Below, piece after piece: positions 16,246 through 53,694 of a stretch of DNA of 64,000 bases; the stretch's first letter is position 1, and every line of letters starts with the position of its first letter. Made by a program: the position numbers and the translations under genes. The notes under the pieces are model-generated. The model had not been told where the DNA came from and did not search any database. It worked only from the letters and a program-made list of their open reading frames with translations. The stretch is from Escherichia coli (GTDB lineage: Bacteria; Pseudomonadota; Gammaproteobacteria; Enterobacterales; Enterobacteriaceae), in the NCBI RefSeq assembly GCF_003334385.1, contig NZ_QOWN01000007.1, one strand, 5' to 3'.

Positions 16246-16511
16246 GGTCATTCTCCTTTACGGTGATAACCGTCGCGTAAGCAAAAAATTGCCCCATTTT
16301 TTTGGATTCCTCAGCGACAACAACTGTCGATTTTTAGTAAATATCTATCCGGTACGAAGCCCGGCCTCTTGGTATGAATGATTGGTTTGAAGCAAAAAAT
16401 AACCGACGCTGATGAAACGTCGGTTTTTAGTCATTTTTTGACAGCGGCGCATTGTGCCTAAATGGGGGGGAAATGACAAGAGAATGAGAGGCTTGTCATA
16501 ATAATTTTTCT

Positions 16512-18393: not shown

Positions 18394-18648
18394 TCAATAA
18401 TGATAACGACATGCTGCAATGAGCAGTGAATCGTCGGTAACCGCGTATACCAGACGGTGCTCCTCTGTAATGCGTCGGGACCAGAAACCTGACAAATTAT
18501 GTTTCAGGGGTTCTGGCTTCCCCTTACCTTCAAATGGCGTTCTGCGGGTATCTTTGATAAGTTCATTGATCTTTTTAACAATTCGCTTATCTGTTTCCTG
18601 CCAGTACAGATAATCGTCCCATGATTCCTCAGACCAGATTAGTTTCAC
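18394..18648 (-). CDS. yoeB: Toxin YoeB (RelE/YoeB family ribosome-dependent mRNA interferase)
   Basis: 84 aa, overlaps yefM stop by 4 bp. Confidence 0.9.
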
Positions 18649-18896
18649 TCAATGATGTCCTTTTCCGTTCCTTTGCCTGATTTCAGGCTATCGATTGAGT
18701 CCATCAATCTCCGGGCGTTAGCGGGGGAACGCAGTAGATAAGCCGTCTCTTCCAGGGAGTTATATTCTTCGAGTGACATCAGAACACAAGCCTCTCCATT
18801 CTGACGAGTAATAAGGATCGGGGCATGATCTTCAACGGCTTTCATCATTGTTGCCGACAAATTCTGACGCGCTTCGCTGTAGCTAATTGTACGCAT
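18645..18896 (-). CDS. yefM: Antitoxin YefM
   Basis: 83 aa from [23 protein letters not shown]-track start is extended. Confidence 0.9.
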
Positions 18897-19179
18897 GTCA
18901 ATCTCCTCTTTTGTACAGTTCATTGTACAATGATGGGCGTTAATTAACTATTTATTAATTAGTTTGTAGATCAAGATATTGTCAGTGAGACGAAAAATCC
19001 AGGCTTCGCTATTTTGGGTACCGTCAGGTTAGAGGACAGTCCTCTTAGCCCCCACCTTTCCCCGCTCATTCATTAAACAAATCCATTGCCATAAAATATA
19101 TAAAAAAGCCCTTGCTTTCTAACGTGAAAGTGGTTTAGGTTAAAAAACATCAGTTGAATAAACATTCACAGAGACTTTT

Positions 19180-19230
19180 ATGACACGCGTTCAATTTAAA
19201 CACCACCATCATCACCATCATCCTGACTAG
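19180..19230 (+). CDS. hisL: his operon leader peptide HisL
   Basis: MTRVQFKHHHHHHHPD* with seven consecutive His codons. Confidence 0.95.
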   Translation: MTRVQFKHHHHHHHPD

Positions 19231-19293
19231 TCTTTCAGGCGATGTGTGCTGGAAGACATTCAGATCTTCCAGTGGTGCATGAACGCATGAGAA

Positions 19294-19329
19294 AGCCCCC
19301 GGAAGATCACCTTCCGGGGGCTTTTTTAT
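19294..19329 (+). terminator. his attenuator terminator
   Basis: agcccccggaag-atcac-cttccgggggc followed by TTTTTTAT. Confidence 0.9.
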
Positions 19330-19375
19330 TGCGCGGTTGATAACGGTTCAGACAGGTTTAAAGAGGAATAAGAAA

Positions 19376-20275
19376 ATGACAGACAACACTCGTTTACGCA
19401 TAGCTATGCAGAAATCCGGCCGTTTAAGTGATGACTCACGCGAATTGCTGGCGCGCTGTGGCATTAAAATCAATCTTCACACCCAGCGCCTGATCGCGAT
19501 GGCAGAAAACATGCCGATTGATATTCTGCGCGTGCGTGACGACGACATTCCCGGTCTGGTAATGGACGGCGTGGTTGACCTCGGGATTATCGGCGAAAAC
19601 GTGCTGGAAGAAGAGCTGCTTAACCGCCGCGCCCAGGGTGAAGATCCACGCTACTTTACCCTGCGTCGTCTGGATTTCGGCGGCTGCCGACTTTCACTGG
19701 CAACGCCGGTTGATGAAGCCTGGGATGGCCCGCTCTCCTTAAACGGTAAACGTATCGCCACCTCTTATCCTCACCTGCTCAAGCGTTATCTCGACCAGAA
19801 AGGTATCTGTTTTAAATCCTGCTTACTGAACGGTTCTGTTGAAGTCGCCCCGCGTGCCGGACTGGCGGATGCGATTTGCGATCTGGTTTCCACCGGTGCC
19901 ACGCTGGAAGCTAACGGCCTGCGCGAAGTCGAAGTTATCTATCGCTCGAAAGCCTGCCTGATACAACGCGATGGCGAAATGGAAGAATCCAAACAGCAAC
20001 TGATCGACAAACTGCTGACCCGTATTCAGGGTGTGATTCAGGCGCGCGAATCAAAATACATCATGATGCACGCACCGACCGAACGTCTGGATGAAGTCAT
20101 CGCCCTGCTGCCAGGTGCCGAACGCCCAACCATTCTGCCGCTGGCGGGTGACCAACAGCGCGTAGCGATGCACATGGTCAGCAGTGAAACCCTGTTCTGG
20201 GAAACGATGGAAAAACTGAAAGCGCTGGGTGCCAGTTCAATTCTGGTCCTGCCGATTGAGAAGATGATGGAGTGA
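19376..20275 (+). CDS. hisG: ATP phosphoribosyltransferase HisG
   Basis: 299 aa from [17 protein letters not shown]. Confidence 0.95.
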
Positions 20276-25804: not shown

Positions 25805-26409
25805 CAGAACAACAACGTCGCAAACTGGACTGGGAAAAAACCGACGGACTTATGCCGGTGATTGTGCAGCACGCGGTATCCGGTGAAGTGTTAATGCTGG
25901 GCTATATGAACCCGGAAGCCTTAGATAAAACCATCGAAAGCGGCAAAGTCACCTTCTTCTCGCGCACTAAACAGCGACTGTGGACCAAAGGCGAAACGTC
26001 GGGCAATTTCCTCAACGTAGTAAATATTGCGCCGGACTGCGACAACGACACGTTACTGGTGCTGGCGAATCCCATCGGCCCGACCTGCCACAAAGGCACC
26101 AGCAGCTGCTTCGGCGACACCGCTCACCAGTGGCTGTTCCTGTATCAACTGGAACAACTGCTCGCCGAACGCAAATCTGCCGACCCGGAAACCTCCTATA
26201 CCGCCAAACTGTATGCCAGCGGCACCAAACGCATTGCGCAGAAAGTGGGCGAAGAAGGCGTGGAAACCGCACTGGCAGCGACAGTACATGACCGCTTTGA
26301 GCTCACCAACGAGGCGTCTGATTTGATGTATCACCTGCTGGTGCTGTTGCAGGATCAGGATCTGGACTTAACGACGGTGATTGAGAACCTGCGTAAACGG
26401 CATCAGTGA
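25798..26409 (+). CDS. hisI: Bifunctional phosphoribosyl-AMP cyclohydrolase / phosphoribosyl-ATP pyrophosphatase HisIE
   Basis: 203 aa. Confidence 0.95.
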
Positions 26410-29495: not shown

Positions 29496-29650
29496 TGGGA
29501 CCCCCTTTTGATTTCTTGTTTGACACTTGCAGTTGCCAGACCGCAAGGTGTTTTAACAAATCAAAAGGGGTTATAATAACTGGCTCAAAGCTGAAAGCTT
29601 TCCGGAACCCCCAGCCTAGCTGGGGGTTTTCTTAGTATGAAACAAAATAA

Positions 29651-48799: not shown

Positions 48800-49285
48800 T
48801 TTTTTGCCTGATGCGACGCTGGCGCGTCTTATCAGGCCTACAAGACCCGAGCACAGAACCGTAGGCCGGATAAGGCGTTCACGCCGCATCCGGCATTCAG
48901 TGCCTGATGCGACGCTGACGCGTCTTATCAGGCCTACAGGTCCCGAGCACAGAACCGTAGGATGGATAAGGCGTTCACGCCGCATCCGGCATTCAGTGCC
49001 TGATGCGACGCTGGCGCGTCTTATCAGGCCTACAAGACCCGAGCACAGAACCGTAGGCCGGATAAGGCGTTTTACGCCGCATCCGGCATTCAGTGCCTGA
49101 TGCGACGCTGGCGCGTCTTATCGGGCCTACAAGATCCAAGCCCTGAACCGTAGGCCGGATAAGGCGTTCACGCCGCATCCGGCATTCAGTGCCTGATGCG
49201 ACGCTGACGCGTCTTATCAGGCCTACAGGTCCCGAGCACAGAACCGTAGGATGGATAAGGCGTTTTACGCTGCACCCGGCAACCG
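48800..49285. repeat. BIME array: about 10 REP palindromic units in alternating orientation
   Basis: Repeated gcctgatgcgacgctg(g/a)cgcgtcttatcaggcctac and gtaggccggataaggcgttcacgccgcatccggc units. Confidence 0.9.
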
Positions 49286-53608: not shown

Positions 53609-53694
53609 GTCGTTACCCTTTTTCAGGCAATAGTTGGCCCTGACCGAAACGGCCAATTTTGTTTTTGTCGTTATTTACATCTCGGTTTCGCATT

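Follow-up and report, generated by a model that had tools for sequence, protein, structure and literature searches.

An intact, ordinary hisL attenuator precedes the histidine operon in an Escherichia coli genome

The window, a 64,000-nt stretch of an Escherichia coli genome (contig NZ_QOWN01000007.1) that was analysed as a whole, carries the histidine operon and its control region. Its open reading frames correspond to the gene order plaP-yoeI-yeeY-yeeZ-yoeB-yefM / hisL-hisGDCBHAFI-wzzB, as found in two annotated E. coli neighbourhoods. The operon is intact 3′ of the leader: hisG starts at 19376 and is followed on the same strand by the hisD, C, B, H, A, F and IE reading frames, ending at 26409. 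Divergent from hisL lie the toxin-antitoxin genes yoeB (18394-18648) and yefM (18645-18896), both on the - strand; two TGTACA hexamers just upstream of yefM (18912-18917 and 18924-18929) look like an operator. Elsewhere in the window, Rfam families scoring above threshold were STnc240 (16392-16466, - strand), STnc490 (29505-29628, - strand, 144 bits), a JUMPstart element (43477-43515, - strand), four tandem naRNA4/REP-like units about 96 nt apart (48864-49223, + strand) and an algC RNA motif (53613-53662, - strand), and these matches fit the his, O-antigen and colanic-acid neighbourhood of E. coli. Between yefM and hisG, we delineated the following features.

19112-19141, + strand: candidate hisL promoter, with a -35 hexamer TTGCTT (19112-19117), an 18-nt spacer and a -10 hexamer TAGGTT (19136-19141).
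19149, + strand: predicted transcription start (+1) of a leader RNA of about 180 nt, placed by DnaA-box offsets and leader length rather than by a mapped 5′ end.
19180-19230, + strand: hisL leader peptide gene of 16 codons, from ATG (19180) to TAG (19228-19230), with the translation MTRVQFKHHHHHHHPD and then stop, as in the RefSeq E. coli annotation.
19201-19221, + strand: seven tandem His codons (CAC CAC CAT CAT CAC CAT CAT), the sensor of His-tRNA(His) supply.
19213-19226, + strand: segment A, comprising the last His codons and the Pro-Asp codons, which pairs with B (A:B -12.2 kcal/mol; 95% paired in 78 orthologues).
19222-19250, + strand: predicted his pause signal, a 5-bp hairpin (19222-19226/19235-19239) with an 8-nt loop, followed by G-10 at 19241, U-1 at 19250 and G+1 at 19251.
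19230-19248, + strand: segment B, partner of A in the terminating and of C in the antiterminating arrangement (B:C -12.1 kcal/mol; 98% paired in orthologues).
19248-19257, + strand: segment C, partner of B or D (C:D -12.7 kcal/mol; 99% paired in orthologues).
19263-19273, + strand: segment D, partner of C or E (D:E 96% paired in orthologues).
19292-19327, + strand: the attenuator, an intrinsic terminator with E arm 19292-19305, loop 19306-19310, F arm 19311-19324 and T-run 19322-19327.
19363-19367 and 19376-19378, + strand: hisG ribosome-binding site GAGGA and start codon ATG, read from the sequence; the HisG product is 79-99% identical to 80 Enterobacterales orthologues.

The run of histidine codons, written as (CAY)7, has a single match in the 64-kb window when both strands are considered, and its chance expectation is 0.00, with none found in 100 dinucleotide-preserving shuffles of the window. 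The frame that carries it opens 5 nt 3′ of a weak, purine-rich GAGA, the putative ribosome-binding site of hisL. A preliminary description of this DNA, made from the sequence alone, had placed hisL at 19180-19230 with the product MTRVQFKHHHHHHHPD, and this is exact to the base; the seven tandem His codons that it reported are confirmed at 19201-19221 as the sole such run in the window. It had further described a GC-rich hairpin with a U-tract at 19294-19329 ahead of hisG, in a region ending at 19376. The hairpin was found at 19292-19327, within 2 nt of that position, and hisG indeed starts at 19376.

The 14-bp terminator stem, formed by AAAGCCCCCGGAAG (19292-19305) and CTTCCGGGGGCTTT (19311-19324), closes a loop of sequence ATCAC (19306-19310) with a folding energy of -27.6 kcal/mol and stands 52 nt before hisG (19376). 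Its GC-rich core begins at 19295 and ends at 19321, and the six T at 19322-19327 overlap its 3′ end, the first of them forming the last three pairs of the stem. The element at 19292-19327 ranks among the strongest intrinsic terminators of E. coli. A consensus promoter/terminator scanner returned zero sites in 18900-19500; we rejected this empty result as a false negative, both the promoter and the terminator being visible in the sequence and conserved. The scanner missed the promoter because the -35 hexamer TTGCTT agrees with the consensus at only three of six positions, below the cut-off, and it probably missed the terminator since the A:U extension of the stem uses up the T-run that is required after it. 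Negative output of this scanner is thus not to be taken as absence of sites.

We take the TTGCTT and TAGGTT hexamers to be the his promoter described in the Salmonella and E. coli literature. Of 77 Enterobacterales orthologues, 55 retain TAGGTT upstream of hisL, and a TTGC-type hexamer lies 17-18 nt further upstream; judged by their sequence and by this conservation, the pair look like the promoter. Within the transcribed leader, the pause hairpin has the sequence CCUGA/UCAGG, and the exact pause nucleotide, 19250, is one that we take from the his-pause literature. The sequence features of this predicted pause match the published layout of the hisL pause, in which the hairpin spans -30 to -11 and the consensus is G-10 Y-1 G+1 (PMC9291695). 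The his leader RNA of E. coli is 180 nt long (PMC10989985), and with +1 at 19149 an RNA of this length would end at 19328, just past the T-run at 19322-19327.

The identity of the element was examined by an Rfam scan of the whole window at the gathering threshold, which placed His_leader (RF00514) at 19206-19329 on the + strand with 131.6 bits, where the gathering score is 49. The model is matched from end to end (positions 1-126 of 126; E 1.4e-21). Megablast of 19050-19400 found a match in 5424 of 5426 complete E. coli genomes and none in the other two; identity was at least 95% in 5400 of the matching genomes, and the remaining 24 had copies at only 80-95%. Matches to the leader region in this genome collection include one plasmid record and reach up to six places in one genome. 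Twelve listed records, spanning the identity range, are all annotated with "hisL: his operon leader peptide" and "His leader region", and hisG is annotated as well in each of them except the weakest, partial match. Moreover, the RefSeq annotation of near-identical genomes agrees with the position of the leader between the promoter and hisG. The characterization of the region as a textbook attenuation control region is therefore borne out by the RF00514 score and by the hisL, His leader region and hisG annotation in the sampled E. coli genomes. Its usefulness as a locus anchor is likewise upheld, the position between yefM and hisG being that in annotated E. coli. Its use is that of a locus anchor only: it places the window at the chromosomal yefM-hisL-hisG junction of E. 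coli, beside the O-antigen and colanic-acid region, and shows that neither the his operon nor its control region is disrupted.

Folding of the leader yields two sets of helices, a terminating set of A:B, C:D and E:F and an antiterminating set of B:C and D:E. Helix A:B joins 19213-19219 and 19222-19226 with 19235-19239, 19241-19244 and 19246-19248; B:C joins 19230-19238 with 19249-19257, plus 19239-19240 with 19246-19247; and C:D joins 19248-19256 with 19265-19273, so that position 19248 is used by both A:B and C:D. The core of D:E (19263-19270 with 19301-19308) has an energy of -9.9 kcal/mol, which becomes -16.7 kcal/mol when the helix is extended by 19272:19299 and 19274-19276:19295-19297 around an internal hairpin (19278-19281:19286-19289). 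In doing so, D:E takes up nine of the 11 GC-core bases in the 5′ arm of the terminator, E, and D:E and E:F therefore cannot coexist.

To follow these elements through related bacteria, we scanned for HisG in one genome per species and obtained 80 Enterobacterales loci, ranging from Escherichia and Citrobacter to Photorhabdus, Proteus, Morganella, Plesiomonas and Zophobihabitans. A short leader ORF ending in a His run, then P, S or F, then D or E and a stop codon, lies 123-278 nt upstream of hisG in 78 of the 80; most of these orthologues end in HHHHPD followed by the stop. The longest run of consecutive His codons is 4-7, most often 6, and a few runs are broken by one other codon. The two exceptions are a contig truncated 71 nt upstream of hisG and Candidatus Steffania adelgidicola (NZ_CP045889.1; locus L080, 600-1000). 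The latter has no run of at least four His codons within 400 nt upstream of hisG and no RF00514 match in its leader region, and it keeps hisG at 81% identity; from the sequence, the attenuator seems to have been lost in the 1.37-Mb reduced genome of this symbiont. RF00514 was recovered at 76-107 bits in all five divergent loci with a leader ORF that were scanned, namely Photorhabdus, Proteus, Plesiomonas, Zophobihabitans and a Pantoea symbiont. Outside Escherichia, the leader frame of many orthologues is open upstream to a further in-frame ATG, e.g. MNKHSSRIYMTRVQFKHHHHHHHPD (L003, L004, L005, L007, L008, L015, L021, L026, L035, L045, L049, L051-L055 and L060), and the recurrent MNKHS.../MNSHS... 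start may represent a longer leader peptide or a second start.

Conservation of pairing was quantified on a MAFFT alignment of 78 distinct leaders, with the 3′ partners slid by 1-3 columns as the control. The terminating set was 96.9% paired and the antiterminating set 97.3% paired, compared with 39-59% in the slid registers; for D:E the values were 96% and 45-49%, and the E:F terminator was 97% paired. Two-sided changes were observed in the terminator at G19295:C19321 (17 sequences) and C19299:G19317 (26 sequences), and in D:E at G19263:C19308 (11 sequences, of which 10 have A:U and one U:A). As 19308 lies in the terminator loop, its covariation with D supports D:E specifically and is not explained by E:F. 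As B:C hardly varies among the 78 leaders, none of its pairs showed two-sided changes, and covariation support for this helix is weak. In C, the most frequent change is A19253G (17 sequences), which pairs as G:U with U19234 as well as with U19268. Alignment columns used in both sets were the most conserved (0.11 bits, versus 0.26 and 0.46 where only one set uses the column and 1.03 in non-coding columns left unpaired; Mann-Whitney p = 1.4e-8 for the first of these against the last), a pattern expected from dual pairing constraints. Furthermore, conservation is higher in the non-coding segments B to E than in the N-terminal codons of the leader.

These elements suggest the following course of events. 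Transcription would start near 19149, and the polymerase would pause around 19250 once the A:B pause hairpin has formed, giving a ribosome time to load on hisL; the position of this ribosome would then decide which of the two hairpin relays forms on the emerging RNA. When His-tRNA(His) is plentiful, the ribosome would reach the stop codon at 19228 and cover A and B, whereupon C:D would form and leave E free to pair with F, and the E:F hairpin with its U-tract would end transcription before hisG. Without translation, A:B, C:D and E:F would form and termination would likewise follow. When His-tRNA(His) is scarce, a ribosome stalled in the seven His codons would cover A and leave B free to pair with C as the latter emerges; the unpaired D would then capture the emerging E, leaving F without a partner and allowing readthrough into hisGDCBHAFI. 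The pause, the geometry of the ribosome footprint and the response to histidine in vivo are taken from established knowledge. Literature on the K-12 and Salmonella leader, summarised in PMC10989985, describes increased readthrough when charged tRNA(His) is limiting, and that the ribosome position selects the structure is established only by literature.

We then considered the energetics of the switch. The segment 19180-19335 folds at -68.4 kcal/mol, compared with -37.4 ± 3.6 kcal/mol for its shuffles (z -8.5; none of 200 shuffles as stable), and the full-length fold holds A:B, C:D and E:F, the same three hairpins as the Rfam consensus. When 30-nt ribosome masks were set at successive codons, the terminator was present in the equilibrium fold every time, including with the His codons masked. 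Taking masked equilibrium folding as a refutation of the switch was rejected, since attenuation is decided during RNA synthesis. The competing helices are nearly isoenergetic (A:B -12.2, B:C -12.1 and C:D -12.7 kcal/mol), and E:F at -27.6 kcal/mol outweighs all others.

Stepwise extension of the 3′ end gave a different picture, in that the alternative set appears only while the 3′ arm F is unmade. With the 5′ end free from 19225-19231, corresponding to a ribosome in the His codons, B:C forms once C has emerged. With the 3′ end at 19310, where E is out and F is not yet made, and with A masked, the minimum free energy fold of 19228-19310 is B:C + D:E at -28.8 kcal/mol (z -2.97; two of 200 shuffles equally stable). 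When the 5′ end is free only from 19234, with B partly covered, the fold to 19310 keeps C:D and leaves E open. Partition-function snapshots to 19310, computed for every A-site position, gave C:D with P = 1.00 and E free for untranslated RNA, and B:C and D:E with P of at least 0.93 for a ribosome in His codons 1-6. Even for a ribosome at the stop codon, D:E is still favoured at equilibrium (P = 0.96-0.98), which is not the textbook prediction. As the preliminary description had held, mutually exclusive antiterminator and terminator structures do exist, B:C + D:E being the minimum free energy fold of nascent 19228-19310 and sharing bases with the terminator 5′ arm. Its proposal that folding of 19180-19335 would reveal both stood in one half: the terminator set forms, whereas the antiterminator is not visible at equilibrium, even with the ribosome footprint masked. 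Given that the alternative fold is seen only before F is made, control would therefore be kinetic and co-transcriptional rather than a two-state equilibrium.

Refolding barriers between the competing structures were estimated along findpath direct paths; these values are heuristic upper-bound estimates and not a kinetic simulation.

A:B + C:D to A:B + D:E: 8.7 kcal/mol.
C:D to D:E: 10.4 kcal/mol.
B:C to C:D: 11.7 kcal/mol.
B:C + D:E to E:F: 15.6 kcal/mol.
A:B to B:C: 15.7 kcal/mol.

By the same method, the next helix can form from unpaired strands at a cost of only 2.8-3.2 kcal/mol. With barriers of 8.7-15.7 kcal/mol against about 3 kcal/mol for a new helix, the first-made helix should therefore persist, and according to these estimates it should last the fraction of a second that the polymerase needs for the remaining 20-60 nt. 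Static thermodynamics alone gives no textbook logic; in the modelling, discrimination rests on the order of synthesis together with the heuristic barriers, and the textbook outcome with the ribosome at the stop codon is rescued only by the order of synthesis and a predicted barrier of about 10 kcal/mol. The order-of-synthesis folds and the modelled barriers of 9-16 kcal/mol are consistent with the kinetic relay model. The sequence elements are all present, the two pairing sets overlap and are conserved, and the barriers obtained here are consistent with kinetic trapping. The equilibrium fold of a complete attenuator shows the terminator alone, and a naive two-structure test could thus wrongly refute a genuine attenuator.

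Collectively, we assign the region to the E. coli histidine operon leader, a ribosome-mediated transcription attenuator, with a probability of about 0.97. The hisL attenuator in this strain is an intact, wild-type form, ordinary and already known.

An alternative published for E. coli is that the leader RNA acts additionally, or instead, as a DnaA-binding "riboswitch". In this 2023 proposal, DnaA binds box-like sequences within the his leader transcript and promotes attenuation (PMC10989985); the binding itself is worded by its authors as "might bind" (PMC10989985). The four published DnaA-box offsets (46-56, 126-134 and 187-195; PMC10989985), counted from a start at 19149, fall exactly on boxes with two mismatches, and DnaA-like boxes lie at 19194-19202, 19196-19204, 19274-19282 (- strand) and 19335-19343 (- strand). 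However, each of these boxes carries two mismatches to TTWTNCACA, and boxes of this quality number about four per 200 nt across the window. The leader contains seven of them, and at least seven are found in 14% of 202-nt window tiles, which is indistinguishable from chance. Moreover, the best-conserved columns do not include the box regions, and 19274-19282 lies in a variable spacer. DnaA binding would in any case be an added layer and not a replacement for ribosome-mediated attenuation. The sequence neither supports nor excludes the DnaA proposal, and we regard it as unlikely.

Between the -10 hexamer and the predicted start, a single-base difference was seen at 19146: the sequence is TAGGTTAAAAAAC in this strain, TAGGTTAAAAGAC in the K-12-like one and TAGGTTAAATGAC in E. 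albertii. This part of the promoter is reported to be important for ppGpp control of the Salmonella his promoter, in work cited in PMC10989985. That the attenuator in this strain is modified by a second, protein-mediated input, with DnaA acting at the weak boxes, or that the A-for-G difference at 19146 alters the ppGpp response of its his promoter, seems to us a little less likely still.

Two further readings would dispense with ribosome-mediated sensing altogether. In the first, the small ORF is a chance frame and the hairpin a plain terminator or insulator between the divergent yefM-yoeB genes and hisG, with no sensing. It can draw only on the fact that 16-codon ORFs are common, many spurious ones appearing in the ORF list of the window, and it is contradicted by the zero chance expectation of (CAY)7, by the fact that 78 of 80 Enterobacterales loci retain both the ORF and its His run, and by the stronger conservation of segments B to E than of the N-terminal leader codons. 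In addition, yefM-yoeB lie on the opposite strand and run away from the hairpin, so that a + strand terminator cannot serve them, and we consider this reading extremely improbable. Equally remote is direct sensing of histidine by the RNA, or sensing via uncharged tRNA in the manner of a riboswitch or T-box, with no translating ribosome: the leader is said to resemble tRNA(His) (cited in PMC10989985), but no T-box or riboswitch family reached threshold in the region, where the Rfam scan returned His_leader alone, the His codons lie in a translatable ORF with a possible GAGA ribosome-binding site 5 nt upstream, and a translating ribosome is reported to be required for de-attenuation (PMC10989985).

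The ribosome-mediated attenuator described here is like the hisL-his attenuator of E. coli K-12 and Salmonella enterica (RF00514) in its leader peptide, six pairing segments, pause signal and terminator, and it occupies the same position between yefM and hisG. From 19180 to 19329 it is base-identical to both a K-12-like strain and Escherichia albertii. Over 351 nt, only three substitutions separate it from the K-12-like strain (19054, 19146 and 19372), all outside the leader RNA structure; 19146 is A here and G in the K-12-like strain, and 19372 lies 4 nt before the hisG ATG. In the his leader, six segments (A to F) make up a relay of three hairpins and there are seven consecutive regulatory codons, whereas the trp leader works with four segments (1 to 4) and a pair of Trp codons. 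The principle is shared with the trp, phe, leu, thr and ilv leader-peptide attenuators of enteric bacteria, in each of which a short ORF with tandem regulatory codons and a pause hairpin are combined with alternative hairpins and an intrinsic terminator (PMC1183508, PMC9291695).
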